From a virus (taxonomy: Duplodnaviria > Caudoviricetes), in IMG/VR virus record IMGVR_UViG_2747842453_000002, positions 32,001 through 96,000 of that record: a stretch of DNA of 64,000 nt; one strand, given 5' to 3'. The notes under the pieces are model-generated. The model was not told the origin of the DNA and made no database searches. It was given only the letters and a program-made list of their open reading frames with translations. The first letter of the stretch is position 1. Each line of letters begins with the position of its first letter. This document shows, piece after piece, positions 29,481-49,845 of this stretch. The position numbers were made by a program, and so were the translations under genes.

Positions 29481-29509
29481 TTGACTTCCATAACGAATCA
29501 CTCTATATA
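29481..29509 (+). promoter_or_regulatory. Early promoter with spacer CGAATC
   Basis: TTGACT-N7-CGAATC-N4-TATATA. Confidence 0.75.
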
Positions 29510-29540
29510 TAATGTATAAGTTGGTCAAAAGGATAAGAAC

Positions 29541-29780
29541 ATGTCTACCGGTATTAATAACTTTATGAACGCAATATATAACGCTATTGGCACAGAGGTT
29601 AGTGGTTATTATAAAAATACTCCTTTTCTTGGCAAAATTATCTCTACACGTACAAAGTACGGCAATGATATCCAAGTGACTGTAGAGGATGATGATGGTC
29701 GCTGGTTTCTTATTGATGCAACCGAACTTCTAAATGGTGATACTAGTGTCTATACCAATCTTCATGTTTATTTAAAATAA
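29541..29780 (+). CDS. Small early hypothetical protein
   Basis: Own promoter and AGGA RBS. Confidence 0.65.
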   Translation: MSTGINNFMNAIYNAIGTEVSGYYKNTPFLGKIISTRTKYGNDIQVTVEDDDGRWFLIDATELLNGDTSVYTNLHVYLK

Positions 29781-29793
29781 TTCAAGAAAGTTG

Positions 29794-29822
29794 TTGACAA
29801 TAGAAACGAATCGCTATATAAA
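29794..29822 (+). promoter_or_regulatory. Early promoter with spacer CGAATC
   Basis: TTGACA-N7-CGAATC-N4-TATAAA. Confidence 0.8.
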
Positions 29823-29853
29823 GAATACATAGACAGTAATAAAGGGATATGAT

Positions 29854-30162
29854 ATGTTTGTTGTCAAAACACAAATTCTGGAAAATTATGGTGCACATTC
29901 AGCCGATGGCAAATTTTCAAATGGCAATGCTTACTGGAAAATGAAGGGCGGCAATGAATATATTGTGAACGATGTAGAACGTCCACAAGATGCTATGGCA
30001 TTTATTGCTGCAAAATATATGGTAAATGATCTGTATTGCAAAGAATTTCCGTTAGAAGCAATTACATGGAAAGAATGGCAGAACGAGTTAATGGATGTGG
30101 ACGAAGGTTATCGTGCTTTTCTAGTAGAAAATGCAATTCCAGTATCACCTCTCCAGTCTTAA
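29854..30162 (+). CDS. Small early hypothetical protein
   Basis: Own promoter; ENYGAH..YWKMKGG motif. Confidence 0.7.
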   Translation: MFVVKTQILENYGAHSADGKFSNGNAYWKMKGGNEYIVNDVERPQDAMAFIAAKYMVNDLYCKEFPLEAITWKEWQNELMDVDEGYRAFLVENAIPVSPLQS

Positions 30163-30169
30163 AAAGTTC

Positions 30170-30198
30170 TTGACAGTGTAATCCAACTACGCTATACT
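30170..30198 (+). promoter_or_regulatory. Sigma-70-type promoter
   Basis: TTGACA-17-TATACT; no CGAATC in the spacer. Confidence 0.75.
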
Positions 30199-30214
30199 AT
30201 AATAGTAATAAACA

Positions 30215-30421
30215 ATGAAAGAGAATCAAATGAACGTAAATTTTACAAAAATAACTGATATCGAATTTGAAGGTATCGATATGGCAGACTATCCTAAGTT
30301 CTGTGATGCGTATATTGAATCTGCTGTTATCGATGGCGTTGAAGCTACCGAAAAACAACTTGACGTAATCAACGCAGACTATTCGTTTGTCTACGAAAAA
30401 CTACAAGAGTGGTTATACTAA
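30215..30421 (+). CDS. Small early hypothetical protein
   Basis: 68-aa ORF (start may be 30230); GIDMADYPKFCDAYI. Confidence 0.65.
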   Translation: MKENQMNVNFTKITDIEFEGIDMADYPKFCDAYIESAVIDGVEATEKQLDVINADYSFVYEKLQEWLY

Positions 30422-30425
30422 AAAC

Positions 30426-30454
30426 TTGACAAATATTTCGAATCACGCTATAGT
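30426..30454 (+). promoter_or_regulatory. Early promoter with spacer CGAATC
   Basis: TTGACA-N7-CGAATC-N4-TATAGT. Confidence 0.8.
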
Positions 30455-30482
30455 ATATAAGTAATCAAAAAAGGAATACAAT

Positions 30483-31613
30483 ATGTCTGCAACTGTTTCA
30501 ACACATGATATGGATGTTCGTCTAGTTCGCCCAAGCGATATTCGTGAAGAAGTTAACTATGCAATGAATCGTAAGCGCCCTGTCTTTATTTGGGGACCTC
30601 CTGGTATTGGCAAATCTGAAATTGTAAGTTCTATTACGCAAGAACGCTCAGGCTATATGATTGATATGCGTCTTGCACTTATGGAGCCCACTGATTTGCG
30701 TGGTATTCCTGTTCCAAATATTGAGACTGGGCTTATGGAATGGTTGCCACCTGCTGATCTCCCTACTCAAGAACTTGCTGACCAATTTGATTGTGTTGTT
30801 TTATTCTTAGACGAAATGAACCAAGCACCGCAATCAGTACAGGCTGCAGCATATCAATTAATTCTTAATCGCCGCTTAGGGAATTATCATCTTCCCGACA
30901 ATGTTCTTATTGTTGCTGCTGGTAATCGGGAGAGCGACCGTGGTGTTGCGTATCGTATGCCTAGCGCACTTGCCAATCGCTTTGTTCACTTAGAAATGAC
31001 TACAGATTTCGAAGATTGGCAAGTTTGGGCATTACTTAACAATATGAATCCAGAAGTTATAGGCTATGTTACTGCTAATAAAATGGATCTAATGAACTTT
31101 GATCCTCGTACTGCTTCACGTGCATTTGCTACTCCTCGTTCATGGACTTTTGTTTCACAAATGCTTCCACAACCTGGCGAAGAAATTAGCACAAGCCGAT
31201 TGCATGATTTGATTGCTGGCACAGTAGGTGATGGCATTGCTACTAAGTTTATGGCTCACCGTGCACTAACAGGTAAACTTCCTAATCCAACTGATATCTT
31301 AAATGGAACAGTTACCACACTTTCACCTGAAGCGCGTGAAATCTCTGCTATGTTCTCACTAACTGCATCGCTATGCTACGAACTTAAAGATTTTCTAGAC
31401 CGCAATGGTAAAGAAAAAATGGAAGAGTTATATAAAATGGCTGATAATTTTTTCAACTTTATGATGGATAACTTTGAAACTGAAATGACTGTACTTGGTG
31501 GTCGCACCGCATTGAAAGTTTATAAACTGCCACTTGAGCCTCGCAAAGTTCCTTGCATTGAAAAGTTTTTCAAAAAATATGGCAAACTAATCATTGATGC
31601 ACACAATGCTTAA
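30483..31613 (+). CDS. MoxR-like AAA+ ATPase
   Basis: Walker A GPPGIGKS, Walker B LFLDE, AAGN and ALANRF. Confidence 0.9.
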   Translation: MSATVSTHDMDVRLVRPSDIREEVNYAMNRKRPVFIWGPPGIGKSEIVSSITQERSGYMIDMRLALMEPTDLRGIPVPNIETGLMEWLPPADLPTQELADQFDCVVLFLDEMNQAPQSVQAAAYQLILNRRLGNYHLPDNVLIVAAGNRESDRGVAYRMPSALANRFVHLEMTTDFEDWQVWALLNNMNPEVIGYVTANKMDLMNFDPRTASRAFATPRSWTFVSQMLPQPGEEISTSRLHDLIAGTVGDGIATKFMAHRALTGKLPNPTDILNGTVTTLSPEAREISAMFSLTASLCYELKDFLDRNGKEKMEELYKMADNFFNFMMDNFETEMTVLGGRTALKVYKLPLEPRKVPCIEKFFKKYGKLIIDAHNA

Positions 31614-31618
31614 AAATA

Positions 31619-31644
31619 AAAAGTGATCTTCGGATCACTTTTTT
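31619..31644 (+). terminator. Intrinsic terminator with cUUCGg tetraloop
   Basis: AAAAGTGATC-TTCG-GATCACTTTTTT. Confidence 0.9.
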
Positions 31645-31645
31645 C

Positions 31646-31675
31646 TTGACATATTATAAATACCTGTGATATGTT
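31646..31675 (+). promoter_or_regulatory. Sigma-70-type promoter
   Basis: TTGACA-18-TATGTT; TATAAATA lies inside the spacer. Confidence 0.55.
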
Positions 31676-31706
31676 ATTAAAGTAATCAGACACAAGGACG
31701 AATCAC

Positions 31707-33053
31707 ATGCGTATCGAACCAGAAAAAATTACAACTGAAGATGATTTTAATTCAGTGTTTGATGATTTACTTAAAGAAAATGGTATTGAAGTTGACGAAA
31801 ATTCAGAAGAACCAGTGGTATTTGAATACACCGACCTAGAAGTCAAAGAAATGATTGTATCTGGTCGTGTTCGTATGCTAATTAAGCATCCATTCTTCGG
31901 CACTCTTGCGACTCGTTTAAAACTAGTAGAAGCAGAATGGTGTCCAACCGCCGCGGTAGATGGTAAGCACTTCTATTATAACTCGGATTTCTTCCGTACA
32001 ATGACACCAGAGGAAATTGACTTTATTGTCGGCCATGAGGTTTTTCATTGTGTGTACGACCATTGTGGCATCGGTAGTCGCTTAATGGATTTTGCAGATA
32101 ATGAACGTAATGCAAAGTTGTGGAATATTGCTGCTGATTACAAAGTCAATCAGGCAACAGTAGAAGCAAAAATTGGCACAATGCCAAAGCAAGCTCTGTA
32201 TGATCGCAAGTATTACAAATCATATACTGAAGAAATCTATCGTGACCTATTAACGCAACAAGAAGATGGCAAAGATTTCAGTGATACCGATACACTTGAT
32301 GAACATATGTTTGGTGATGGTGATGGTGATGGTGAAGGTAGTGGCAATGGTGAAAATGATCCTACAGGTCGTAAGGCTCCTATAAAAATTTCAAAAGAAG
32401 AAGCCAAAGAGATTAAAGACCAAATGAAACAGGCTGTATTACAGGCTGCACAAGCATCTGGTGCTGGCAATCTTCCTGGTGATGTTAAACGTATCATTCA
32501 AGATATGACTGAACCTAAGATGGACTGGCGTGAATATTTGAACTTGAGTATTCAAAGTTCACAAAAATCTGATTTTACATGGATGCGCCAATCACGTAAA
32601 TCTCGTAGTATGGGTATTTACTTACCAGGCATGGACAATGAAGTTATGGTTGATGCTGCTATTGGTATTGATGTTTCAGGTTCTATATCCAAAGATATGA
32701 TACGTAACTTCTTAGGTGAAGTCTACGGTATTATGCAGCAGTTTCAAGATTTTCGTTTAAAGATTTGGACATTTGATACCCGAGTATACGAAGAATCTTT
32801 TAAAGAATTTACTCCTATGAACGCAGATGAAATTCATGAGTATGAAGTTATTGGTTGTGGTGGAACTGATTTTGTTTGTAATTGGGACTTTATGGAAGAA
32901 AATCAAATTGAACCTGATAAATTTATCATGTTCACTGATGGCATGCCATTTGGCAGTTGGGGTAACTCGGCATATTGTGACACTCTATTTGTTATACATG
33001 GTTCAAAAAATATTGTTCCTCCGTTTGGCGAATACACTTATTATCAAGACTAA
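31707..33053 (+). CDS. Metallopeptidase + vWA domain protein (DUF2201-like), MoxR partner
   Basis: HEVFH (HExxH), DVSGS MIDAS, GGTDF and FTDG motifs. Confidence 0.85.
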   Translation: MRIEPEKITTEDDFNSVFDDLLKENGIEVDENSEEPVVFEYTDLEVKEMIVSGRVRMLIKHPFFGTLATRLKLVEAEWCPTAAVDGKHFYYNSDFFRTMTPEEIDFIVGHEVFHCVYDHCGIGSRLMDFADNERNAKLWNIAADYKVNQATVEAKIGTMPKQALYDRKYYKSYTEEIYRDLLTQQEDGKDFSDTDTLDEHMFGDGDGDGEGSGNGENDPTGRKAPIKISKEEAKEIKDQMKQAVLQAAQASGAGNLPGDVKRIIQDMTEPKMDWREYLNLSIQSSQKSDFTWMRQSRKSRSMGIYLPGMDNEVMVDAAIGIDVSGSISKDMIRNFLGEVYGIMQQFQDFRLKIWTFDTRVYEESFKEFTPMNADEIHEYEVIGCGGTDFVCNWDFMEENQIEPDKFIMFTDGMPFGSWGNSAYCDTLFVIHGSKNIVPPFGEYTYYQD

Positions 33054-33061
33054 ATATCATT

Positions 33062-33601
33062 ATGACAAACGATACACTGTTATTAAATACTGATGGTTCA
33101 CCATTAAGTATAACACCACTTTCAACCTTATCATGGCAAGAAAGCATTAAACTAATCTGGCTAGATAAAGTTAATGTTCTTGAATGGCATGAATGGCAGG
33201 TACATTCTGTTAATCATAGTATGCATGTCCCAAGTGTTATAACAGTTAAAGAATATATGCCATACTCTGGAACAATTAACTTTACTCGTAATAATGTTTT
33301 TATAAGAGATAAGTACATGTGCCAATATTGTTTAAAGAAATTTGTAAAATCGGATTTGACTTTAGACCATGTACTTCCAAAATCAAAAGGTGGCAAAACA
33401 AGTTGGCATAATATCGTAAGTGCATGTAAAAAATGCAATCATAGTAAAGGCAATAATCCAAACATTGTTCCTAGAGTTATGCCAGATAAGCCGACCTTTT
33501 ATAAGATGTTTGGTAGTAAAAACTTTATATTAAATATAAAACATGAAATGTGGAAAAAATATTTAGATTGGCCAGATGAATATATTAATATGGTGGCATA
33601 A
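33062..33601 (+). CDS. HNH endonuclease
   Basis: RDKYMCQYC, TLDHVLPKSKGG and NIVSACKKCN. Confidence 0.9.
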   Translation: MTNDTLLLNTDGSPLSITPLSTLSWQESIKLIWLDKVNVLEWHEWQVHSVNHSMHVPSVITVKEYMPYSGTINFTRNNVFIRDKYMCQYCLKKFVKSDLTLDHVLPKSKGGKTSWHNIVSACKKCNHSKGNNPNIVPRVMPDKPTFYKMFGSKNFILNIKHEMWKKYLDWPDEYINMVA

Positions 33602-33607
33602 AACTAC

Positions 33608-33664
33608 TTGACTCTAAACTATTAATATAGTATAATGGTGATATGAATAAGAGTTTATTCATAT
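33608..33664 (+). promoter_or_regulatory. Sigma-70 promoter followed by an inverted repeat at the start site
   Basis: TTGACT-17-TATAAT, then ATATGAATAA-GAGT-TTATTCATAT. Confidence 0.7.
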
Positions 33665-33699
33665 TATATAATATAAATTGACAAAATAGGAGAAACCCA

Positions 33700-33954
33700 A
33701 TGTCAGAAGAAACTCAAGAAGCAGTACAAGATGCACCTGCAGTAGAAACACCAAGTGTTACGGTGAATGATCTTGTGAATGTATATGCTATCATTGATTT
33801 AGCATCGAAACGTGGTGCGTTTCAAGCAGGCGAACTATCAGCAGTTGGCAATACTGCAAATAGAGTAAAAGCATTTGTAGATCATGTTCAGGCTCAAAAT
33901 GCAAGTGCCGAAGTAGAAGCAACAGATGGTGCTGCTGAATCAGCGGAATCGTAA
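33700..33954 (+). CDS. Hypothetical phage protein
   Basis: AGGAG RBS; IIDLASKRGAF motif. Confidence 0.75.
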   Translation: MSEETQEAVQDAPAVETPSVTVNDLVNVYAIIDLASKRGAFQAGELSAVGNTANRVKAFVDHVQAQNASAEVEATDGAAESAES

Positions 33955-33955
33955 T

Positions 33956-34591
33956 ATGGCTAAAGCACCTTTTATTAAACATGTAGGAAGACATTCTGGT
34001 ACAGGTCAGCGTATAAGTGTTGTGTTTATGCAATTACCAGATGATATCAATAATGCTCTAGTTGTGTACAGTGACTCATTACCAGATCGATACCATGATG
34101 CATATATGGAAGCAATCGAATCTAATGAGGGCCAAAATACTAATAATCTATATGAAGTTCTATCTCGTAAAGTATTCTTTCATGGTAAAACTATGCTTGA
34201 TACATTGCATAAAGAAGGGCATTTAAAGAAGGTGCCAACTGAACAGATTATTATGACACCAAATACACAAACTAATGTTCCATTAAATGAAATTAATGAT
34301 GCAATGAATGCGGACGATACTGCAGTATCCGAACCAGTAAACACAGAATCAAAATCAAGAATTGATTCAAACGTGGAATCATCAAAACAAGATGAAAATA
34401 AACAAATTGCACAAAATTTGATGGTACAAGCAAATTTGTTGGAGTCAGATGCTATGGCAAAAAGACAGGAAGCATATAAATATGATCCGAGTCTGAAACC
34501 AAAAGAAGCCAAGTCTAAAGTCCGCGTAACAACTGGAACATCAGCCGATGCTCCAAAAAAGCGTGGTAGACCAAAAAAGTCTGTAACTTAA
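33956..34591 (+). CDS. Hypothetical protein with C-terminal AT-hook-like motif
   Basis: KKRGRPKK at the C-terminus. Confidence 0.7.
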   Translation: MAKAPFIKHVGRHSGTGQRISVVFMQLPDDINNALVVYSDSLPDRYHDAYMEAIESNEGQNTNNLYEVLSRKVFFHGKTMLDTLHKEGHLKKVPTEQIIMTPNTQTNVPLNEINDAMNADDTAVSEPVNTESKSRIDSNVESSKQDENKQIAQNLMVQANLLESDAMAKRQEAYKYDPSLKPKEAKSKVRVTTGTSADAPKKRGRPKKSVT

Positions 34592-34866
34592 TGACAAGTA
34601 AGCGTAGTAACATATTAAGTAGAATTGAACAAGAACGTGACCGACAATACAATTTGGCGGGTAGCGAATATGATGCGAAAAACTCTCCAAATGATTGGAT
34701 TGCAATAGCATCATATTATCTTACTCAAGAAACAAAACGTGCTACTATGCTTACTCCACCTAATTCTACTGAATTTGAACGAGAACTAATCAAAGCAGCG
34801 GCCGTAATTGTTGCATCACTTGAACATATTGAAGTAATGAAAGAGCAAGGACACCTCAGTGATTAA
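34591..34866 (+). CDS. Possible MazG-like all-alpha NTP pyrophosphatase
   Basis: ERDRQ..DW..ELIKAAAVIVA pattern. Confidence 0.45.
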   Translation: MTSKRSNILSRIEQERDRQYNLAGSEYDAKNSPNDWIAIASYYLTQETKRATMLTPPNSTEFERELIKAAAVIVASLEHIEVMKEQGHLSD

Positions 34867-34880
34867 AGAGAGAACACGTA

Positions 34881-35189
34881 GTGGAATTTGATAGAGAAAA
34901 AGAATTTGACCGTATTATAGAAGAAATAACACCAATAAGTATTCCTACTAGTTTCATTAGAGGAATTTCTGTTGTAATGAGAAATGGATCAACTGTTGAA
35001 CTAAATGGAGATGATCTACTAAGTACCTTACCACTTAGTGGAGATTTTAGTTGGTCAGATATTGCTGCAAATTTTGAAGCAATTGAAGATGTAGAAATTC
35101 TAATAGATGTTCCAGGTCTAAGACAAAGTGTAGTAGATAGTGTTAAAAATATTTTAAAAGAACATTTCGATACGTATAAGGATACATAA
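34881..35189 (+). CDS. Hypothetical protein
   Basis: GTG start with GAGAG upstream; abuts thyA. Confidence 0.65.
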   Translation: MEFDREKEFDRIIEEITPISIPTSFIRGISVVMRNGSTVELNGDDLLSTLPLSGDFSWSDIAANFEAIEDVEILIDVPGLRQSVVDSVKNILKEHFDTYKDT

Positions 35190-36059
35190 ATGTCAAATTA
35201 TGCAGAAGATGAATACTTAGACCTGTTACATCACATATTGGAAAAAGGTGAACATCGCAAAAATGAAAGAACAGGAGTAGGTACACGCTCTATATTCATG
35301 TGTACAAATCGTTATGATCTTAATAACGGATTTCCATTACTTACTACAAAGCGAGTACCATTTAAATCAGTACTAAGTGAATTACTATGGTTCCTGGAAG
35401 GTTCACAGAATGAAAGACGGCTTGCTGAAATTCATTATGGTAAACCACGTAGTGAACTAATAGGAAAGAAAACTATTTGGACTGCGAATGCTGATACACA
35501 AGGCGTAGCATTGGGACATTATAATAGTGAAACAAATAAAGATTTGGGCCCAGTATATGGAGTACAGTGGCGAAACTGGAATAACAAAGACCAGATTGCC
35601 ACGCTAATCAATTCAATTAAAAATAATCCACAATCTCGTAGACATATTCTAAATGCATGGAATGTAGGAGACTTAGATAAAATGGCATTACCACCATGTC
35701 ATGTTATGTCACAGTTTTATGTGAGTAATGAAGGTAAACTAAGTTGCAGTTTATATCAACGTAGTGCTGACATATTTTTAGGTGTACCTTTTAACATTGC
35801 AAGTTATTCATTACTCACGCACATGATTGCACATATTTGTAAATTTGATGTGGGTGAATTTATACATGTAATTGGTGATGGACATATATATGAAAACCAT
35901 ATAGATGCGGCCAGGACGCAACTGGCGAGGACACCAGTGCCATTCCCTAAACTTATTATAAATCGTAACGTTTCGCATATAGATGATTTTAAAATGGAAG
36001 ATTTTGATATTAAAGATTATAGTCCAGGCGATACCATCAAAGCACCAATGGCAGTATAA
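35190..36059 (+). CDS. thyA: Thymidylate synthase
   Basis: RTGVGT, ELLWFL, GPVYGVQWR, MALPPCH, YQRSADIFLGVPFNIASY and HIYENH. Confidence 0.97.
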   Translation: MSNYAEDEYLDLLHHILEKGEHRKNERTGVGTRSIFMCTNRYDLNNGFPLLTTKRVPFKSVLSELLWFLEGSQNERRLAEIHYGKPRSELIGKKTIWTANADTQGVALGHYNSETNKDLGPVYGVQWRNWNNKDQIATLINSIKNNPQSRRHILNAWNVGDLDKMALPPCHVMSQFYVSNEGKLSCSLYQRSADIFLGVPFNIASYSLLTHMIAHICKFDVGEFIHVIGDGHIYENHIDAARTQLARTPVPFPKLIINRNVSHIDDFKMEDFDIKDYSPGDTIKAPMAV

Positions 36060-36062
36060 AAG

Positions 36063-36088
36063 AAAAGCACCTATTAGGTGCTTTTTTT
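36063..36088. terminator. Bidirectional terminator between convergent modules
   Basis: AAAAGCACCT-ATT-AGGTGCTTTTTTT. Confidence 0.85.
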
Positions 36089-36133: not shown

Positions 36134-37090
36134 CTATAAGTCCTCGTTAATAAATGTATCACGCTTCATCTGTTTACATACTTGCATACAACGAGGCACA
36201 GGATTATCACTATCCCAACTATTAACTATACCTTGCCATACATCGCTACTTATAGCATCTTCAACACTTACATTATTCAAGTTAATTGAATTTTTATAAT
36301 CAGTATCTCTAAGTAATGTCTCATAACTATCTTTGGTATTACCACTTACGCCATACTCCAATGTCTTTGCATTTAGATGACAACAAGGAATAACATCACC
36401 TGTATGGTTTATAAAAATTCGTTTTTGATTTCCATACTTACAACTTACATAAGGAATTTCTTGTGCAGTATCAATCTTCTCTGTATTTGCTGCTTTTATA
36501 TTTCCAGTAGTGTCTTTACGATGACTAATAATAGTTTTGAAGTTTTTAAACCCCTCATTCGTGGCTTTGCTTTTGGCTTCCTCCAACTGATGTTCGTTAT
36601 GTTCGAACACGATAAACTGCCATACACTTTTGCCACCTGCTGCATTGAAAGCTCGATAGTTTTGTTCGACTTTTTTGAAATTACTACCCTGACGATATAC
36701 TTCACTTAGTTCATCACTGCCGTCAATTCCCCAAGTAACATTATGGCTACTTGGTAAAATACTTGCTAACTCAGTCCACCAGTTAGTAGTTCGCAAACTA
36801 CCGTTCGTTGCAATATTGATGTGTGTATTCCAATCAGCAAAATGGCGTATAATATCAAAGAACTGTGGATGACTTGTTGGTTCGTCTATACTGCCACAAA
36901 AGTTTACAATTTTAATACTAGGAAATAATTCTTTTTTAAATTTTTCACGTATAGTTTCTATTGTAAGATATTCTTTATTGATAAGATCATCAGCGTGTTT
37001 AGATATAACTCGCAAACAACCTTTGCACTCAATATTACAAAAACTAGTAAGTTCTATATCTAACCATTCTATTGTATCCATATTCCACAT
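36134..37090 (-). CDS. Radical SAM protein with C-terminal Twitch/SPASM-like domain
   Basis: CNIECKGC, TNGS and GDVIPCC motifs. Confidence 0.88.
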   Translation of the reverse strand: MWNMDTIEWLDIELTSFCNIECKGCLRVISKHADDLINKEYLTIETIREKFKKELFPSIKIVNFCGSIDEPTSHPQFFDIIRHFADWNTHINIATNGSLRTTNWWTELASILPSSHNVTWGIDGSDELSEVYRQGSNFKKVEQNYRAFNAAGGKSVWQFIVFEHNEHQLEEAKSKATNEGFKNFKTIISHRKDTTGNIKAANTEKIDTAQEIPYVSCKYGNQKRIFINHTGDVIPCCHLNAKTLEYGVSGNTKDSYETLLRDTDYKNSINLNNVSVEDAISSDVWQGIVNSWDSDNPVPRCMQVCKQMKRDTFINEDL

Positions 37091-37155
37091 ATTATTATTC
37101 TCCTCGCATTGAATTATTTTTTAGATGGTAACTCAATGTCACGTAATTATCAGTT

Positions 37156-38412
37156 TTATACCTCATGCCAATATTTCCTGAATTCTGGATAAACATCTAA
37201 TATATTAGTTTCGTGGTGTTGATCTTGTGCATTAGCATATTCAATAAAGTCATCCCAATAATGATACCAATCCTCACCATTCATATAATTAATTACGTTA
37301 TCTCCAAATTTCTTCCATCTCTCAAATGATCTGTTTACAAATTTTTGTGAGTGATTATAAGATTGCATCCATTCTCTATCTCCATTAATCAATTCATCCC
37401 AATCATTTGTTACTTTCTCTTTTAATGCCGGTGGTAACAATTTAGGATTTAATGGACGAGGAAACTGAACAATACTTGTGTGATAATCAACTCCCATTGA
37501 ATAGTAATACTTGGCGATTTCAGTTGCTCTCGTAATATTTAATAAATTGGCTGTCATTGTTGCACTTAGTTGAATGTTGCTTAACTGTAGTGCTTTTTTT
37601 ATATTATCTTCTGCTATTGATAAATTGCCTCGAACTCTAACGTATTCATATATTTCAGGATAGGCATCCAAACTAACTCGTATACTAACACGCTTAAAAT
37701 GCTTCCACAAATCTAGTATACTTTTTCCCTTATATTCTAGTGTACTAAAATTACTATTATATTGTAATGTAATATGGTTTGCTTCAGGTAAAATACGCTC
37801 TAAAAAATCATAATGCTTATCATGGAACAAAGGTTCCCCGCCTGTAATCATCAATTCAGTAAGGTTCGGACTAAGTGAAACCACTTCATCAATTATCTCT
37901 TGTGTTAGACTAACATGCTTTTCAAGTTCCCTGTATGTTCCAACTTTTTTCATTTGTCCCATTAATATCGGATCTCGTTTCGCCTTCTGTTCCCATATGC
38001 TACTATATGTAGGAGAACAATGTCTACACATCAAATTACAGATATTATCAAAACGTATTTCAATACTTTGTAAATTTTTAATTGGGTAACTACCATCTTC
38101 TTCGATATTGTTAATAATATTATTACTATCAACATCAGGATACATTTCAGCCGCATTTTGACGTAAACTTTTCGCACCGCTACGTTCTAAATCCCAACAA
38201 CTTATACAACCTTTATGTTGAACTCCATTTACCAATTCGGTTCGCACTTTACGTAACTGTTCGCCATTCCAAGTATCTGTAAGTGTATCTGTTAGAAAAT
38301 CTCCAACCTTATCTGGATATCTCCAACACGCACTCAACTTACCTTCATTTTTAATGTTAATATGATGGAAAGGCATTATGCAAAATGTATCACTCTTATT
38401 CTTATCTTCCAT
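37156..38412 (-). CDS. Radical SAM protein with N-terminal Twitch/SPASM-like domain
   Basis: FCIMPF..CISC; CNLMCRHC; GGEP. Confidence 0.9.
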   Translation of the reverse strand: MEDKNKSDTFCIMPFHHINIKNEGKLSACWRYPDKVGDFLTDTLTDTWNGEQLRKVRTELVNGVQHKGCISCWDLERSGAKSLRQNAAEMYPDVDSNNIINNIEEDGSYPIKNLQSIEIRFDNICNLMCRHCSPTYSSIWEQKAKRDPILMGQMKKVGTYRELEKHVSLTQEIIDEVVSLSPNLTELMITGGEPLFHDKHYDFLERILPEANHITLQYNSNFSTLEYKGKSILDLWKHFKRVSIRVSLDAYPEIYEYVRVRGNLSIAEDNIKKALQLSNIQLSATMTANLLNITRATEIAKYYYSMGVDYHTSIVQFPRPLNPKLLPPALKEKVTNDWDELINGDREWMQSYNHSQKFVNRSFERWKKFGDNVINYMNGEDWYHYWDDFIEYANAQDQHHETNILDVYPEFRKYWHEV

Positions 38413-39822
38413 TTATATATCCTTAAATATGTCTTTCATCTCTGTAAAGGTAGAACTAAAACTATTGTTACGCTGCCTATCACATAGACTTAAATATTCT
38501 TTTAACTCTGGAAGTCTAATGCTCCAGTCTTCACTTTCCATAAATTGTACCATACCTTGAAGACGCTTTATTCCGTATTCTGCGTCGATAAAATTTTCTT
38601 GTGTTACATTGTCCTTATGCCAACTTGGGATACCTAGTTCCCAATTCGCTTCCCACCATGGATAAAACTCTTCATACTTTTTACGTACTTCTGCTTTAAA
38701 CCAGTCTGGTAATACTTTAACATTAAGATGTGCTGGGTGATAAACAAAGTGATAATTAATTCCGCCAGCGCCGAATGGCCACATATTAATTTTACTAAAA
38801 CCTTGTTCCAGTTTCCATTTAATGAAATCTGGAATATAATATATGTTCAAAGCCTGCACTGCACATGCAACAGTTACTTCTACATTGTCACTCGTTTGCT
38901 TGTCTAATATATGAAATACTTCTTTCTGTCTGCTCCATTCACTAGGATAGCGAATGTAATCATTCATATCTTCAATACTATCAACACTATAATGAAAGCG
39001 TACTAATTTAAATTCTTTCCATAGATCAAATAAATCATCTCTCCACTCTACACCATTTGAGTTATAGCGTAGTTCAAGGTCCTTTGCGTAACCCATTTTG
39101 ATAGCGTGTTCAAGTATTTCGTAGTGTTCTTCAATAATAAGACTTTCGCCACCTGCAAAATATATCTGTTGCATACTAGGCATCTGATCGTAAAACTGTT
39201 CCCAAAATTTTGGATTCTGCTTATGCCAATTATAACTACTTCTATTAGTACTACCTTTGTCAGCCCATTGCATTGTCTCCTTTAGAGATTCGTTTTTTAC
39301 CTCTGGAAAAATCTTTTTATAATCTTTAATCCAGCCACTACTATCGTGTGGACTACACATTACACATGCTAATTGACACTTAGTACCAAATCTTAAATCA
39401 ATATATGCTAACTGTGGAGGAACGCCGCCGTCAGCAGATGTGTTTTCAATAAGTTCATCAACATTGACACGTTGGCTCCAATAATTTGTTTCCCACATAC
39501 GTTTACTATTATGTCCGGATGCCTCTTCCTTGTAACACTTCATGCAACTAGGTGGCTTTTCACCATTAAGCATTTGTAGCCGTACATTCTTCATGTAATT
39601 AGAATTCCACGCAGTTTCAAAGTCACTAACATTTAGATTGTTTGGTTTACCATCATCTGTTTTAAGAATTCCTACTTGTCCGCCATGAACTTTGTCATTA
39701 GTTGGTCCAACTGAACTCGCATTTGCAGTACAACATACTCGCATACTGCCATCGGGACGGGTGCTAAGATGTACCCATGGCAACAGACAAAAAGTCTCGC
39801 TTGGATATTTTTTTTCAGACAT
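38413..39822 (-). CDS. Radical SAM protein with N-terminal Twitch/SPASM-like domain
   Basis: FCLLPW..VCC..CMKC; CQLACVMC; GGES. Confidence 0.9.
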   Translation of the reverse strand: MSEKKYPSETFCLLPWVHLSTRPDGSMRVCCTANASSVGPTNDKVHGGQVGILKTDDGKPNNLNVSDFETAWNSNYMKNVRLQMLNGEKPPSCMKCYKEEASGHNSKRMWETNYWSQRVNVDELIENTSADGGVPPQLAYIDLRFGTKCQLACVMCSPHDSSGWIKDYKKIFPEVKNESLKETMQWADKGSTNRSSYNWHKQNPKFWEQFYDQMPSMQQIYFAGGESLIIEEHYEILEHAIKMGYAKDLELRYNSNGVEWRDDLFDLWKEFKLVRFHYSVDSIEDMNDYIRYPSEWSRQKEVFHILDKQTSDNVEVTVACAVQALNIYYIPDFIKWKLEQGFSKINMWPFGAGGINYHFVYHPAHLNVKVLPDWFKAEVRKKYEEFYPWWEANWELGIPSWHKDNVTQENFIDAEYGIKRLQGMVQFMESEDWSIRLPELKEYLSLCDRQRNNSFSSTFTEMKDIFKDI

Positions 39823-39848
39823 TTGGTGTTTACTCCGTTATTATACGT

Positions 39849-39877
39849 ATTATACTAATATTTTAAGTGATTGTCAA
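39849..39877 (-). promoter_or_regulatory. Perfect consensus sigma-70 promoter
   Basis: Minus strand TTGACA-17-TATAAT upstream of 39822. Confidence 0.8.
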
Positions 39878-42711: not shown

Positions 42712-43802
42712 CGAAATTGCTCCTTGAACGGATCAAACTCAGTTCCGCATTTCATTGCGCATACTCCCAGTTTACCATCACTTATGCTAGTTTTATCCCA
42801 ACTATCGGTAATACTAGTTAAGAGATTACCAGACATTGCATCTTCTATGCTAATTTCAATAACATTAATTCCGTCTTTTCCGCCAGCAGCATCTATATGA
42901 TCCCATATCTGTTCTACACGATAATCTTTATGCCACCACTTATACATACGACCCGCAGTCCAACAGCATGGCATCAATAGGCCTTCTGCTGTTATAAAGA
43001 TTTCATTCTTTTCAACTGCCTTACACGATATATTACATTTGTCATAATATTCACGCATACTACCATATGATTTTTCTATTTCTTTTTGCTTTAATAGAGC
43101 AATATTTTGGTTGTCAGTACTTTTAGGTTTAGCGATTACCGCAGTCTTTTCTCCATTGCGGTTTTGTGCCTGGTGTGTATCTTTAGACGTTTCTCCACTT
43201 GCAACTATAAATCTCCCAGATTTTTTCTTTTGAAACTTTTCACATCCCCATTCAATTGCAAGTGTTTCTGCTTCTGCAACCTGATGTTCATTGTGTTGGA
43301 ATATCAGGAAGTCCCATCTTGCTCTACCACCAGCAGAGATGAATGCTTTCATATTACGTTCTACATTATCCCAAACAACATTTTGTCTGTAAAGATGATT
43401 TGTATCACGAAGACCATCAACACTAAAGATTACTGCACCTTTATTATTGATAACTCCAGCCAATTCTTCCCACCATTCTGTATTCTTTGCACCAGCATTT
43501 GTGTTCATACTTAGCCACATTGTTGGATTATGTTCTCTAAAGTATTTAAATACTTCTAATGTATCTTTAGCAACAATAGGATCACCAAGATTACCACACA
43601 TATACATCGCATCTAATTGTCCAATAAACTCTGGAGAGAATATCTTTTTACAATCGTCTATTGATAGTTCTGCATTTGTAATATGTCTATTATCAACACC
43701 GCCATTTTCATTTCGGTCACACATAGGACACGCTGCTTGACAACGTTGCGTTATTTCTAAATGAACTTGTTTTATGTTATCGTATCTATACAAGTCTACC
43801 AA
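42708..43802 (-). CDS. Radical SAM protein with C-terminal Twitch-like domain
   Basis: CQAACPMC, CGNLGDP, FSVDG and LMPCC. Confidence 0.9.
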   Translation of the reverse strand: MVDLYRYDNIKQVHLEITQRCQAACPMCDRNENGGVDNRHITNAELSIDDCKKIFSPEFIGQLDAMYMCGNLGDPIVAKDTLEVFKYFREHNPTMWLSMNTNAGAKNTEWWEELAGVINNKGAVIFSVDGLRDTNHLYRQNVVWDNVERNMKAFISAGGRARWDFLIFQHNEHQVAEAETLAIEWGCEKFQKKKSGRFIVASGETSKDTHQAQNRNGEKTAVIAKPKSTDNQNIALLKQKEIEKSYGSMREYYDKCNISCKAVEKNEIFITAEGLLMPCCWTAGRMYKWWHKDYRVEQIWDHIDAAGGKDGINVIEISIEDAMSGNLLTSITDSWDKTSISDGKLGVCAMKCGTEFDPFKEQFR

Positions 43803-43840
43803 ATCCCCTTATAGTCATCTTGACTGTTTTTAAATAACAT

Positions 43841-44752
43841 CTACTTATATCCAATTAGCATAAATCTCGTATACTTATCAAGTTCTAATTCGCCACTATA
43901 TAATATATTTTGCATAGGCGCCGTTACTGCAAACTCTTCTATACTTCCAACACAATTAACGTGTTCTTCAATTTCATAATAATCATTACTTTGTAAAATT
44001 ACTATCTTTCCCTGAGGGATCTTAGTATACCATTCAGAAAAGTTTTGTATATGTTCACAACTTGTATTTATGATTGTATCTGGTATATCATCTTGTTCGC
44101 AGGCAGTGCCGTCTGATCTATGTGTTGTATAAGTTTCACTAGCAAAATTTATATCAAAAATATCTTTAGTTGATGCTTTAAATTGCCATTCATTTACTAC
44201 CCAGGGTTTATTAAAAACTTCAGCAATTTTAGCGCATGATGGATCAATATCGAAAGACCTAACTTTATCCACTTTAATGTTACTCTCAAATAACATTGTA
44301 GCAAGTGTAGCATACCACCCGGCACATAGAAATACTGTACCTAAATCTAAGTTTAATTTCTTTAATTCTTTTACAATCCAAAGTTTGCTTTTCAATTGTC
44401 CTCTACTAAAACAATCATTCCATATTTTTGTATCATTTACGAAAAAATTTTTAAACGCTGCTGTAAACTGTGTGTCTACATAGCGTTCTAGTATAGGCCA
44501 TAACTTCCAAGTATTATCCTCTAAGACTAGTCTGCGCAAATCCTCATCATTGACTAAACGAAATAGACTATGCAAATTTTGTTCTAATACTGCTTTACGT
44601 AATTCTTCAATATCTCCCAAGACATTATTAGGCATCAGTCTAAAAATACTGCTGATATCTTGATCAATGTACGCTCTACGCAAGTCTGCTAACTTGGTGT
44701 TTGTAGGATACAATAATTCAAATCTGTCTAATAATTCAAATGTAGGAAGCAT
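43841..44752 (-). CDS. SAM-dependent methyltransferase-like protein
   Basis: LCAGWY, SFDID and INTSCEH Rossmann-like motifs. Confidence 0.55.
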   Translation of the reverse strand: MLPTFELLDRFELLYPTNTKLADLRRAYIDQDISSIFRLMPNNVLGDIEELRKAVLEQNLHSLFRLVNDEDLRRLVLEDNTWKLWPILERYVDTQFTAAFKNFFVNDTKIWNDCFSRGQLKSKLWIVKELKKLNLDLGTVFLCAGWYATLATMLFESNIKVDKVRSFDIDPSCAKIAEVFNKPWVVNEWQFKASTKDIFDINFASETYTTHRSDGTACEQDDIPDTIINTSCEHIQNFSEWYTKIPQGKIVILQSNDYYEIEEHVNCVGSIEEFAVTAPMQNILYSGELELDKYTRFMLIGYK

Positions 44753-45718
44753 TTACTTAATACCAATTTTCATAAAATAATTTACATTATTAATTCGTAA
44801 TACACCACTGTATATCTCTTCAGTTAATATAAATTTACGATTGAACGCTACAGAACTTTTAAATGGTCTAGGAACATCTCCATCTCTTCCTACCAGTACC
44901 ACATGCCGGGTCGTAGGAACCATTTTCCACCATGATTCATAATCGTCCAAGTAACTTATATTATGATTAATTATTAATCCTGGAACTTCATTAAATGGAT
45001 CACTAGTAGTACCATCAGGTAATATTGCTGAAAACGCATTAGTTTCATAGTTTAAATTATAAATATCCTGGGTGGTTGCCTTAAATTTCCAATTATTTAA
45101 TAATTCGTCTTGCATCATATAGTCTGCGATAAACTGACCTGTACCATTTATATCAAATGATCTAATATTTTCAAATTTCAATTTAGTGTCTAATATTGAT
45201 GCTGCTAGTAATCCAATTTCACCTCCTAAAATATATATAGTACCGAGATATTTATTATTATAAGAATTAACCATTGATGAAGTTATCCAGGAAATAATTT
45301 TTCCATTTTCGGCAGTTGAGAATTCACCGATATCAAAGTTTGGAAAATTATATAGAACGTCTTTCAATCGATCTAAGATTTTAGAATCACCATTACCAGT
45401 ATCTATGTTTGAATAATAAGACATAAAATTCATAGCAGATACATAATTTCCTAACTGCTGTGGAATGTTTTCATTGCCAAATGTATTATGCATAAGAGTA
45501 TAATTATATGTTTCTAATTTAGGAAGTTCAAAATCATGTGCAATTTCTTCTACTACTGAAAAAAATGATGAATCATCGACTTCTTCATTTTCATCTTCAA
45601 TTAATAAAGATGAATTGGATCCTGTTGCAATTTGATTATACAAGTCTTCATTACTTTCAATAGTTTTTTCTTTTCGCCTAGAACGTTTTGTTACTGAAAT
45701 ATCACTCATAGTATTCAT
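44753..45718 (-). CDS. Divergent paralog of the adjacent methyltransferase-like protein
   Basis: LGTIYILGG, RSFDIN and WKFKATTQDI match the neighbouring gene. Confidence 0.55.
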   Translation of the reverse strand: MNTMSDISVTKRSRRKEKTIESNEDLYNQIATGSNSSLLIEDENEEVDDSSFFSVVEEIAHDFELPKLETYNYTLMHNTFGNENIPQQLGNYVSAMNFMSYYSNIDTGNGDSKILDRLKDVLYNFPNFDIGEFSTAENGKIISWITSSMVNSYNNKYLGTIYILGGEIGLLAASILDTKLKFENIRSFDINGTGQFIADYMMQDELLNNWKFKATTQDIYNLNYETNAFSAILPDGTTSDPFNEVPGLIINHNISYLDDYESWWKMVPTTRHVVLVGRDGDVPRPFKSSVAFNRKFILTEEIYSGVLRINNVNYFMKIGIK

Positions 45719-46811
45719 TAAACCTTTCTTTTAACCATGTAAAATCATTTATCATATTTAAATTTTCTTGATTATCTTTATTATTTAATCCGTATTCTCT
45801 GCCCGCTATTGCACCGTCATGTGCATATTCACCATATAGTTTAGAGTTGCTAATGGTTGAATCACACCAAACATTCAGACGTTTCTCTGTATCACTGTCT
45901 ATCTGTTCTTTAATAATCTTACTACTCAATTTTGTACATTCTCTGAACGCACTCTTCCATGTATTAAAAGCATCAGTATTAAACATTGTAATATTTGAAA
46001 CTTCTGGCATCAATTTGAAACTATCTGAAATGCTAGTTGTGAAATCTATATTCCATTTTGTGGCATTTCTCAATAAATCTGTAGGAAGTAATTTTACACC
46101 TCCATAACCATATTCCAAGTCATTAATAGGATTACGTGAATGCCAAACATGTACAGTTTCTTCATCCCATCTTGGTGCAAAATAATCAAATTTAAACTCT
46201 GGAGTTATTATAGCATCAGCATCTACCACATAAAACATACTTGTTTCCGCTAATTCAGCCGCCTTTTTATGTGCTTCAAATATTCCTTTAACACCATCAA
46301 TTCGCTTGGCATGTGGAAATCTCTTCAGAAGGTTATTATAATTATCATCTGCAAAAATTTCTTTATAACTAATATAAACAATATCATATAACAAATCTTC
46401 CATGTCATATGTAAATATATATTCATTATGTTCTTTATATTTGCCTTTTAGTCTATATAAGGCAGACTCGATGTCAGAAGTATTGTGTGTCCTATGTAGT
46501 AATTTAATACCATCTAACGTATCATTTCTCCACAATCTCATATCATTATTCCATAAATGAGGTATCTGATTATCCCACTTATCAGGTTTAAAATTCCAGT
46601 CAAAGGCAGGATCTATTACAATATCAGGATCAATGATCCAATAATATTCTGTATTCGCCAACATAGAAATCTTAGAATATACATACTCTAAATCATATGG
46701 CTCGCTCAATCTTATCAATTTGACATGAGGCATTCGATTCCTCACCATTTTAAATCTGTCAATATCATTAATTGACAGCTCCTGAGTCATGAAAAAACAA
46801 TCGTATGGCAT
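45702..46811 (-). CDS. Glycosyltransferase-like protein with two GT-A-like repeats
   Basis: YWIIDPD and FYVVDAD DxD motifs; YGYGGVKL; WKSAFREC. Confidence 0.65.
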   Translation of the reverse strand: MPYDCFFMTQELSINDIDRFKMVRNRMPHVKLIRLSEPYDLEYVYSKISMLANTEYYWIIDPDIVIDPAFDWNFKPDKWDNQIPHLWNNDMRLWRNDTLDGIKLLHRTHNTSDIESALYRLKGKYKEHNEYIFTYDMEDLLYDIVYISYKEIFADDNYNNLLKRFPHAKRIDGVKGIFEAHKKAAELAETSMFYVVDADAIITPEFKFDYFAPRWDEETVHVWHSRNPINDLEYGYGGVKLLPTDLLRNATKWNIDFTTSISDSFKLMPEVSNITMFNTDAFNTWKSAFRECTKLSSKIIKEQIDSDTEKRLNVWCDSTISNSKLYGEYAHDGAIAGREYGLNNKDNQENLNMINDFTWLKERFNEYYE

Positions 46812-46846
46812 CTATATCCTTATTCAGTTATATTAATATTATCATA

Positions 46847-48379
46847 TTAATCATCCGATGTCAAGACTTTAATGTCGTGGCATCTCTCAAACTCATATAC
46901 ATCATTTAAATCATTGACAATTGGTTGACCTTTAATATTTAATGATGTATTCACAAGCATAGGACAACCAGTCTTTTCTTTAAACTTAGACAACAATGTA
47001 TATAACCCTGGATGCTGTTCATTGTTAACGGTCTGTACCCGTGAGGTCCCGTCTGCGTGTATGATTGCAGGGAAATCAAGCGGATACTTACACTTAGCAA
47101 CAAATTGCATATAAGGTGAACTATTAATGTTTTCTGGCATAATGAAGTAATCGTGTACATCTTCTTCTAGTATCATAGGTGCGAATGGTCTAAACTTTTG
47201 CCTACGTTTGATTTCATTCATTCTGTCCTTAATTGTATCTCCGCGTGGATCAGCAGTTAGAGTACGATTACCTAATGCACGTGGACCAAACTCTGCACGA
47301 CCATTTGCAATGCCAATAATGTCACCATTAAGTAATGCATCTAATGCTTTCTCTACTGGATAACTACCTTCTATATTATGTCCTAGATAAGGAGTTTCCC
47401 ATTTAATTCTTGCATCGAAGAATTTTTGTGAAGCGCCGATACAACTACCAGCATCACCTGGATTTGGCATTATCCAAATATTTTTAAATCGTTCGGTTAT
47501 TAAACTATTCGCACTACAATTAAGAGCACACCCACCCATCAATACTAAGTTAGTACTGAATGCCATCTTTTTAATATCATCTATAATTACAGATAACATT
47601 TGTGTGTATATTTCTTGTGTCGCTGCAGCAATATCATAATGATCTTGTTCAGTTATTAATTCAGGTAAAAAATCTTTACACCCACGATGCAGATTCTTTT
47701 TTAGGTTGACCACATGGTAAAATTTACTACTATGATCATTTAATACTATTCCAAATTCATCATACATATGTTGAATTATAGTTTTATTATTAACTTCTCT
47801 ATTAATATCGCCATACGCTGCCATACCCATAAGAATATATTCATCTTCCTGCGGTTTTAATCCTAGTCTATCAGTCATTGCACTATAGAATAATCCGACA
47901 CTGGCTGGATATGCTTGTGAATAATATTGCACAAGATTATCATTTTTGCCACGCCATATGCTTAATGTTTCCAATTCACCTATGCTATCTATCACGAGAA
48001 TAGCCGCATCATTGAATGGACTTGTAAAATATCCACTTGCAGCATGTGTATAATGGTGTGATTGATATACTATAGGAATATCTTTTAATTGTTCAAAGTT
48101 TTTTAAATAATTACCTGGCAATTCTTTTAAATCAAATGCAAGTGAATATTGTCCTGCAATCAACTGTCTCCATTTTTTAATAAGTGGCTTCTCATACCAC
48201 GCTATTACATCAGGCTTACCATATGATAAGGCTTCTTGAATTATTTCTGCATTCAAGTTAGGGTCATTTTTTATTTTAGAATAGCGTTCACTATGACTGG
48301 CAAAAAGAATTTTACCATCACAAATGACGCTGACCGCAGCATCATGGTTTAACGCACCTGATATTCCTAGTATAATCAT
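46847..48379 (-). CDS. Carbamoyltransferase (NodU/CmcH/TobZ family)
   Basis: HDAA, SHHYTHAA, GGCALN, PGDAG, EFGPRALGNR, FRPFAP and NTSLN. Confidence 0.93.
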   Translation of the reverse strand: MIILGISGALNHDAAVSVICDGKILFASHSERYSKIKNDPNLNAEIIQEALSYGKPDVIAWYEKPLIKKWRQLIAGQYSLAFDLKELPGNYLKNFEQLKDIPIVYQSHHYTHAASGYFTSPFNDAAILVIDSIGELETLSIWRGKNDNLVQYYSQAYPASVGLFYSAMTDRLGLKPQEDEYILMGMAAYGDINREVNNKTIIQHMYDEFGIVLNDHSSKFYHVVNLKKNLHRGCKDFLPELITEQDHYDIAAATQEIYTQMLSVIIDDIKKMAFSTNLVLMGGCALNCSANSLITERFKNIWIMPNPGDAGSCIGASQKFFDARIKWETPYLGHNIEGSYPVEKALDALLNGDIIGIANGRAEFGPRALGNRTLTADPRGDTIKDRMNEIKRRQKFRPFAPMILEEDVHDYFIMPENINSSPYMQFVAKCKYPLDFPAIIHADGTSRVQTVNNEQHPGLYTLLSKFKEKTGCPMLVNTSLNIKGQPIVNDLNDVYEFERCHDIKVLTSDD

Positions 48380-48489
48380 TTGTAAATAAATGGATCACGC
48401 TTACGAAGTTCTTCTAGTCGTTTTTTTAATTTCTTTTTATCTTTATATCGTGTATACGGATATATTATTATTTGCCATATTTTTTTCAT
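48376..48489 (-). CDS. 37-aa basic microprotein, not in ORF track
   Basis: MKKIWQIIIYPYTRYKDKKKLKKRLEELRKRDPFIYK; ATGA overlap with the carbamoyltransferase start. Confidence 0.7.
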   Translation of the reverse strand: MKKIWQIIIYPYTRYKDKKKLKKRLEELRKRDPFIYK

Positions 48490-48491
48490 TT

Positions 48492-48782
48492 TTAAAATAT
48501 TCCCATATTTACCAGTGTTATTAATATTATTACAGTAAAAACTTTTACTATGAACATTTTACCTATACCTTTTCCGGTATCTTTAACTGCTGGTCGCCAA
48601 GTTTCCCATCTGCCTATTTTTTTCCATTCTTCTTTAGATGTCCATAACCCGCCCACATGTTTGAGCCACTGTTTGAACGTTTTGTCATCGTGCTTCTTAC
48701 GTTCAGTATGCCAGGCATCTAATATTTCAAAAATATTCTTAATTCCCATATTATCATTCTCAATTAACGTAATGTATTTCAA
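48492..48782 (-). CDS. Hypothetical membrane protein
   Basis: C-terminal hydrophobic helix; true start may be downstream (MGIKNI). Confidence 0.55.
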   Translation of the reverse strand: MKYITLIENDNMGIKNIFEILDAWHTERKKHDDKTFKQWLKHVGGLWTSKEEWKKIGRWETWRPAVKDTGKGIGKMFIVKVFTVIILITLVNMGIF

Positions 48783-49032
48783 ACCATCCTAGCATAACTT
48801 TGCCATCTTCCGGAGTAGCGTTAAACCATTCTCCCTTAACTCTTTTGTGTGCATATTCCTTATGTAATGTTTTTTCTAAATTTCTAACTTCTTTTTCTTC
48901 TACTAAGATAGTATCAATTAGTTGAAGTTTGTTAGGATTTCCTGTTTGTAATGTCTTCAATCTTTTTTCTGGATTATTACTGAAACCAAACTTACATAAA
49001 TCTTTTCCATCAGATATGCAATATATATACAT
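48760..49032 (-). CDS. T5orf172/GIY-YIG-family protein
   Basis: YIYCI..KFGFS.NPEKRL..LQTGNP..LH..GEWF. Confidence 0.8.
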   Translation of the reverse strand: MYIYCISDGKDLCKFGFSNNPEKRLKTLQTGNPNKLQLIDTILVEEKEVRNLEKTLHKEYAHKRVKGEWFNATPEDGKVMLGWFEIHYVN

Positions 49033-49763
49033 TATCCATTGCCTTCACGTGTTCGTTTAATATCATCGAATATAATGTTAGCCCAATCTTTATGTGCTAT
49101 CTCATTAGGATGTAGAAATTTTTCATCGCCCTCTATATTATAATATAGTTCTTTATCATACATGTAAGTAAAAAATGTTTGTTCCTCATAAAGATGCTGC
49201 ATATCAATTTGTTTCATAACATTCTCCATCTCATATGTAGTACATATTTCAGAAAATCTGGTGGGATCAATAAGATTAGGTGTTAGATTTAAAGAATTAA
49301 ATAGCACATATTCTAGTTCTGCATTTTTTAAAAAGTTCTGCAGTGTAATAACATTAATAAGATATTGGTGAAAGTCGTATACAGGTGACCAGAAATGTTT
49401 CATATATAATGCATTCAGTTTCTTCAAATCATCATTTGTACTAGCATCTAGTCTTATATTACCATGATATTCAATTGCAGGTATATTGTGTATCAATAAG
49501 TTTTTATCTTCAATAAAATGTTCTTTTCTATTTGGAGTTGTTAATCCAATTGCAACAAACGGACGTTCACCATTAGCAAGCATATCACTTATTGTTTTAA
49601 TTGCTGTACGAACAATATAGAAATTAGAAACGCCTCTATCTGCCTCGGTTTGTGTTTGTTTTCTATCAAATCCTAATAGTTCCGCTAATTCATACGGCCA
49701 AGCATTTTCTTTATTTGCTAGTCCAGTGCCGTATGTAAAACTACATCCATTTGCATATAACAT
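49032..49763 (-). CDS. SGNH-hydrolase-like protein
   Basis: ANGCSFTYG and HPNEIAH; GATAAATA on the minus strand at 49797-49804. Confidence 0.65.
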   Translation of the reverse strand: MLYANGCSFTYGTGLANKENAWPYELAELLGFDRKQTQTEADRGVSNFYIVRTAIKTISDMLANGERPFVAIGLTTPNRKEHFIEDKNLLIHNIPAIEYHGNIRLDASTNDDLKKLNALYMKHFWSPVYDFHQYLINVITLQNFLKNAELEYVLFNSLNLTPNLIDPTRFSEICTTYEMENVMKQIDMQHLYEEQTFFTYMYDKELYYNIEGDEKFLHPNEIAHKDWANIIFDDIKRTREGNG

Positions 49764-49816
49764 ATTTAATATATCCTTTTTTATTATATTCGTAGTTATT
49801 TATCTTGAGAAAAGGG

Positions 49817-49845
49817 TTGACATTATAGACGAATCACTTTATAAA
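49817..49845 (+). promoter_or_regulatory. Early promoter with spacer CGAATC
   Basis: TTGACA-N7-CGAATC-N4-TATAAA. Confidence 0.8.

Follow-up and report, generated by a model that had tools for sequence, protein, structure and literature searches.

In a stretch of tailed-phage DNA, four promoters carry the hexamer CGAATC at exactly the same place between their −35 and −10 elements, which raises the question of what reads this word. The stretch, hereafter the window, is 64,000 nt long and corresponds to bases 32001–96000 of IMG/VR record IMGVR_UViG_2747842453_000002, which has a total length of 120,762 bp and is labelled G000 here. GcrA, a σ70 cofactor that reads m6A in GANTC, and CcrM form the textbook epigenetic cell-cycle switch of the Alphaproteobacteria, and the original prediction was that GcrA, from either host or phage, activates these promoters in response to methylation of the GANTC site within the hexamer. 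Our best explanation, to which we give slightly better than even odds (roughly 0.55), is that they belong to a class of promoters designed for the host GcrA–RNA polymerase–σ70 holoenzyme on CcrM-methylated DNA.

The pattern TTGACW-N7-CGAATC has exactly four matches in the window, all on the + strand and all at the predicted sites, compared with a chance expectation of 0.03; none of 100 shuffled sequences contained four or more. The promoters, P1 to P4, lie at 29481–29509 (−35 TTGACT 29481–29486, box CGAATCA 29494–29500, −10 TATATA 29504–29509), 29794–29822 (TTGACA 29794–29799, CGAATCG 29807–29813, TATAAA 29817–29822), 30426–30454 (TTGACA 30426–30431, CGAATCA 30439–30445, TATAGT 30449–30454) and 49817–49845 (TTGACA 49817–49822, CGAATCA 49830–49836, TATAAA 49840–49845). 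They align as TTGAC(A/T)-N7-CGAATC(A/G)C-N2-TATAnn with a spacer of 17 bp, and each is followed by a ribosome-binding site and an ATG 25–35 nt later. CGAATC alone occurs at chance level in the window (15 seen and 18 expected), so the signal is positional. Other σ70-like promoters in the window lack any similar spacer word, as had been claimed; we list nine, at 15300, 19024, 21714, 23943, 30170, 31646 and 33608 on the + strand and at 39877 and 46864 on the − strand. The promoter at 30170–30198 (+, TTGACA-N17-TATACT) lies between P2 and P3, and the one at 31646–31706 (+, TTGACA-N18-TATGTT) precedes a DUF2201/VWA gene. Across the whole record there are six box promoters, and ∼17 other σ70-type promoters that precede a gene show unrelated spacer sequences. 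These are therefore two discrete promoter classes.

The class extends well beyond this record. G000 (34.7% G+C, ∼30% complete by CheckV) encodes a family-B DNA polymerase whose best cultured matches are from Sinorhizobium phage Phosso (48.7%) and Agrobacterium phage Atu_ph07 (45.3%); all other cultured polymerases are at or below 42.4%, with those of the RaK2-like jumbo phages of Xanthomonas, Yersinia, Cronobacter and Escherichia coming next (∼42%). It also has 61 of 112 proteins in common, at a mean identity of 54%, with G001, a 342-kb contig that is 92% complete. Together these matches show that G000, by its protein content, is part of the genome of an uncultured jumbo phage from a marine family. 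We compared it with five large related contigs, G001 to G005. The motif recurs outside the window, both in the record, where two extra copies lie upstream at record positions 13500 and 15702, and in every relative, where exact copies of TTGAC-N8-CGAATC number between 6 and 23 per contig (15, 6, 23, 17 and 13 in G001 to G005) and are confined to one strand of each. Reversed-pattern controls gave no copies in any of the five. When only promoters that precede a gene are counted, the box is carried by 6/23 in G000, 25/74 in G001, 25/55 in G003 and 19/34 in G004.

An alignment of 79 box sites anchored on GAATC defines the element. The base before GAATC is C in 71 of the 79 and A in 7, the base after it is A in 72 and G in 5, and only three sites fall outside these flank variants. 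The position following the resulting 7-mer is weakly biased and the rest of the spacer holds less than 0.5 bit, so the conserved unit is the 7-mer CGAATCA. Other forms of GANTC are almost absent from this spot, with GATTC found once and GACTC and GAGTC never. The promoters retain σ70-type elements, with a −35 of TTGACA (67 of 75) or TTGACT, a spacer of 16–18 bp and a TATAnn hexamer. The box keeps a strict distance from the −10 element: in 62 promoters anchored on TTGACW the centre of GAATC lies 7 nt before the first −10 base, and in 18 more it is displaced by 1 nt. A subclass of G001 promoters with a 16-bp spacer, TTGACA-N6-CGAATCAT-GC-TATATT, demonstrates that the distance is kept to the −10 element and not to the −35.

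The word corresponds to what is known of GcrA, and so does its predicted placement. The preferred methylated site of this protein is TGATTCG, or more broadly YGAKTCK (Haakonsen 2015, PMC4647560), and CGAATCA is the exact reverse complement of TGATTCG. Read on the opposite strand, the record's sites are TGATTCG at five promoters and CGATTCG at one, as the YGATTCG of the original prediction requires, and the variants found in the wider phage set remain within YGATTCK. Upstream GcrA boxes lie in the promoter spacer, centred at −20 ± 1 or −30 ± 2, and downstream boxes lie at +5 to +30 (Wu 2023, PMC9976885). If the start site is predicted to lie 6–8 nt after the −10 element, the phage box is centred at about −19 to −21, in the −20 zone of Caulobacter; the start region is probably marked by a conserved GTA 7–9 nt downstream of the −10. 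GcrA binds its short asymmetric site as a monomer and holds σ70 domain 2, the reader of the −10 element, and this contact fits a box that is fixed relative to the −10.

The closest parallel is with GcrA/CcrM promoters of the PcsM type in Caulobacter crescentus, which likewise combine σ70 −35 and −10 elements with one GANTC box that has TGATTCG flanks and is centred near −20, the position predicted for the phage box. The PcsM-derived scaffold used for cryo-electron microscopy reads TTGACA-CCCGGG-CGAATC-CCTGC-TATAAT on the non-template strand (PMC9976885). The phage box has the same orientation, with CGAATC on the non-template strand, but lies 1 bp nearer the −10 element. The phage promoters also differ from PcsM in their DNA, which has ∼35% G+C, in using GAATC alone and in having a consensus −35; use of GcrA by the phage promoters is our inference. 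A literature search found no published report of phage promoters built around GcrA and CcrM.

The −10 elements of the two classes differ in a way that suggests a need for activator help in opening the box promoters, which mostly lack the key T at −7. When aligned on the box, 21 of the 79 sites have this T, and the promoter parse gives a value of 20%, or 31% once eight of the G001 promoters with 16-bp spacers are corrected from TATTAA to TATATT. The usual hexamers are TATAAA, TATACA and TATAAC. By comparison, T is present at −7 in 78% of 111 non-box promoters (Fisher p 2e-15, a value that overstates independence because the promoter cassettes are related by descent). A poor −10 fits GcrA, which is reported to act in forming the open complex and to contact the promoter near −7 to −4. 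The trend is not uniform, since promoters of the ATPase orthologue discussed below carry boxes together with TACAAT or TATTAT in distant relatives.

The same layout is found in a second group of phages. A scan of IMG/VR for the exact pattern returned at least 118 loci; by protein content, the matches listed comprise 101 from the same jumbo family, 6 from relatives of Roseobacter phage CRP-6 and 11 that are unclassified, two of which, L097 and L047, have no informative cultured relatives. The cultured CRP-6 itself has the 29-bp layout at position 918, TTGACG-N7-CGAATCAC-TC-TATACA, and its host is the RCA-lineage Roseobacter strain FZCC0042 (PMC6918029). At least six CRP-6-like IMG/VR contigs have the box layout with flanks different from those of the jumbo family, and one of them, L077, holds three TTGAC-N8-CGAATC sites within 15 kb. 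CRP-6-type roseophages have few proteins in common with the jumbo family, and no evident regulator is among them. A BLAST search of one promoter against cultured phages gave no match.

Three clues point to an alphaproteobacterial host for the jumbo family. The first is the ranking of the polymerases described above, in which the nearest cultured relatives of the G000 enzyme are from rhizobial jumbo phages, and the second is the box layout of CRP-6. The third is a fibre module: residues 369–792 of a G001 fibre (1209 aa, L227:194–3823) match the putative tail fibre of CRP-6 (36678–38522) at 49.5% identity (E 1e-110), and every other cultured phage scores at most 130 bits against this segment. 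Of the 301 alphaproteobacterial genomes sampled, 195 encode GcrA, among them genomes of 0.9–1.4 Mb, a tally that includes the unpublished genomes G048 and G241 and is independent of them. Three other routes to the host were set aside. The G000 fibre protein contains only generic repeats that are shared with phages of cyanobacteria, Alteromonas and Methylophilales. A 572-aa modular protein (window 5019–6737, +) has a Sigma70 region 4 domain at residues 168–222 (PF04545, E 6e-14), but this Sigma70_r4 module has 33–42% identity with sigma factor genes from five phyla and is uninformative. Scanning 185,579 species genomes (GTDB, one per species) for the pattern gave 20 single matches in unrelated taxa, about the chance level, and a Rickettsiales contig it returned, from a metagenome-assembled genome, has no protein in common with the phage.

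In the mechanism that we propose, CcrM of the host would methylate GAATC on phage DNA. GcrA would ride on RNA polymerase through σ70 domain 2 and bind methylated CGAATCA on the face opposite the polymerase. Once bound, it would aid open-complex formation at promoters whose −10 elements are deliberately imperfect, mostly without a T at −7.

The original prediction left open whether GcrA comes from the host or the phage, and the phage half of this proposal found no support. GcrA (PF07750) was not found in G000 or in its five relatives, one of which is 92% complete. A methyltransferase of family PF01555 was not found in G000, G001 or G002, but is present in G003, G004 and G005. The 288-aa enzyme of G004 and G005 has CcrM as its best match among solved structures; its score with the NCBIfam CcrM model is 96 bits, compared with a cut-off of 830. 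The marks of CcrM and M.HinfI are a loop-45 signature (N120-P123-N124-F125-G127-R129-N132) and a conserved C-terminal segment of 80 residues (PMC7672430). When aligned to 6pbd, the phage enzyme has no loop-45 signature, and it has no matching C-terminal segment, which rules it out as a CcrM/HinfI orthologue. With neither GcrA nor a CcrM orthologue found in the phages, any reader and any GANTC methylase would be host proteins. A host factor is also the simpler reading of the sequences and the one we favour, because GcrA, MotA and AsiA were not found in the phages and the layout is identical in the unrelated CRP-6 group. Motif, position and orientation stand as originally described, and a GcrA encoded by the phage, not found in these six contigs, is unsupported.

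The main rival is a monomeric activator encoded by the phage and resembling T4 MotA, for which the box would be the binding site; the box promoters would then be a middle class turned on by an early protein of the phage, and their match to GcrA a coincidence. T4 sets a precedent for a monomeric activator on a short asymmetric box, its MotA/AsiA-dependent middle promoters being a second class read by host polymerase, and the coexistence here of two discrete σ70 classes, the box class having the weaker −10, would fit such an activator. Several results make this explanation unlikely. MotA and AsiA homologues (PF09114, PF09010) were not found in G000, G001, G003, G004 or G005, in a search for which T4 served as a positive control (3e-63) and in which one contig is 92% complete. 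The MotA box replaces the −35 element at about −30, whereas the phage box lies near −20 with its TTGACA −35 fully kept, so the layout is not that of a MotA promoter. The same layout occurs in CRP-6-type roseophages, despite the lack of an evident shared regulator, and a match to TGATTCG at seven of seven bases, in the position and orientation of a GcrA box, is an unlikely coincidence. We accordingly give a MotA-like box, an alternative already named with the original prediction, a low probability.

A less probable alternative treats the box as an intrinsic element of the spacer that is read either by a non-alphaproteobacterial holoenzyme or by a host cofactor that has nothing to do with methylation. 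Spacer sequence can modulate σ70 promoters, and the scattered single matches of the GTDB scan are compatible with this explanation. We know of no comparable conserved spacer word for any holoenzyme, however, and the word seen here is identical to the site of a known cofactor. In addition, the only cultured phages tied to the pattern infect Rhodobacteraceae.

The box could also be an operator from which a phage or host repressor shuts off a subset of early promoters. Operators are common in spacers and the box is indeed present on only a subset, but repressors are usually dimeric and an asymmetric 7-bp word without a second half-site would be atypical. The poorer −10 hexamers are those expected of activated promoters. 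We consider repression improbable, a little more so than an intrinsic element.

The MoxR-like ATPase gene behind P3 gives a view of how these promoters evolve. Of 37 distinct regions upstream of its orthologues, 17 keep [C/A/T]GAATC[A/G] at 6–9 nt (mostly 7) before the −10 element, and others hold decayed words such as CGAATTG, CGAATAT and CGATTTC. In relatives with a 92–97% identical ATPase (L228–L234), the gene is driven from a copy of the box-free cassette found at 30170 in the window, a pattern that indicates swapping of promoter cassettes at this gene. Because the box is kept in 17 of 37 regions and the closest relatives of the phage use a box-free cassette, it is a modular, exchangeable promoter feature. 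T4-type phages have mobile cassettes of an early promoter and a stem-loop (PeSL), which resemble the phage promoters in their near-identical early promoters, conserved downstream sequence and exchange between related genomes. The PeSL idea covers the spread of cassettes, but not a 7-bp word that stays constant amid variable flanks and across unrelated phages. That the word is a functionless passenger of such duplicated, recombining cassettes is accordingly the least probable explanation of all: promoters within a genome do have long flanks in common, the first transcribed bases among them, and close relatives do swap cassettes, but information beside the 7-mer is near zero, the word is fixed across phages with ∼50% protein identity and is seen again, between other flanks, in a phage family that is unrelated, and some cassettes lack the word although their downstream sequence is the same.

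Returning to GcrA as the reader, several observations weigh against it and keep our estimate near even. The phage boxes use only GAATC, although GcrA also accepts sites of the GAGTC type, and G000 has no genome-wide GANTC signature, its 290 sites being close to expectation. Its MoxR ATPase is closest to that of Pseudomonas phage PA5oct, so the protein clues to the host are mixed. CRP-6 has a single clear box site, and the box class was not found in nine cultured alphaproteobacterial phages (Phosso, Atu_ph07, Cr30, phiCbK, HTVC008M, phiM12, SIO1, RcapNL and RDJL Phi 1) or in six further roseophages. The box-free cassettes driving the ATPase in L228–L234 mean that the box, judged from these upstream regions, is not essential for a given gene. 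Finally, the site counts and the −7 statistic overstate the number of independent events, the cassettes being kin. A mild excess of TTGAC-N8-10-GANTC is seen in phiCbK (9 versus 1 in the control) and phiM12 (7 versus 1). Separately, RDJL Phi 1 (L205–L208) has one GANTC in 62.7 kb at 58% G+C, a scarcity that suggests the CcrM/HinfI site is strongly avoided.

If the box is indeed read by GcrA, methylation of host DNA would be a regulatory input for phages, beyond the restriction problem that it poses, and the two promoter classes of an abundant group of ocean jumbo phages would be explained. The 7-bp word could also serve to predict, from sequence alone, alphaproteobacterial hosts for uncultured phages. 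A stronger version is that the widespread marine jumbo family and, independently, Roseobacter phages have promoters that work only with GcrA, using its best site at the optimal position together with a −10 that has no T at −7, with early infection gated by the methylation of the incoming DNA and the stage of the host cell cycle; infection would then pass through an epigenetic checkpoint. We regard this version as tentative and rather doubtful. For direct experiments, a cultured system exists in CRP-6 and its Roseobacter host of the RCA lineage.

The genes behind the box promoters are mostly small and of no known function, and on this basis, together with the promoter type, the box promoters probably form an early class. 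P1 precedes an open reading frame (ORF) of 79 aa at 29541–29780 (+) and P2 one of 102 aa at 29854–30162 (+), neither with a family match. P3 drives the MoxR-like AAA+ ATPase of 376 aa at 30483–31613 (+; PHROG 1297, E 3.6e-97). P4 heads a three-gene + strand islet within a block of − strand genes, with ORFs of 65, 50 and 256 aa at 49874–51052 (+) that have no assigned function. The record's promoter at 15702, upstream of the window, is directly followed by a 354-aa ORF (L002:1567–2631; record 15768–16832) with an NPPY motif at residue 78. Its family matches are weak, with E 3.8e-4 for Eco57I methylases, which is below cut-off, and E 0.0025 for PHROG 3689, 'DNA methyltransferase'. The ORF has no sequence match in the PDB, and may be a candidate N6-adenine methyltransferase, with no specificity assigned.

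Early promoters with or without the box have conserved first transcribed bases, which read GTATAAGTT, GTAATCA or GTAACAAGAGAG (window 29510–29530 and 49846–49860, and relatives). A copy of CGAATCAC lies at 31699–31706, roughly +17 to +24 relative to the start predicted for the box-free 31646 promoter and just 5' of the ATG of the DUF2201/VWA gene. This is within the range of +5 to +30 published for downstream GcrA boxes and could be due to chance; GAATC is not enriched near start codons as a second signal (13 of 1103 genes). Elsewhere in the window, the − strand between 36134 and 48379 holds at least six radical SAM genes and a Nol-like carbamoyltransferase gene, a large biosynthetic or tailoring island. 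Across G000, AGCT has an observed/expected ratio of 0.23, a strong depletion, GGCC and CGCG are at ∼0.5 of expectation, several 6-bp palindromes are absent, and GATCC/GGATC is enriched 1.7-fold.

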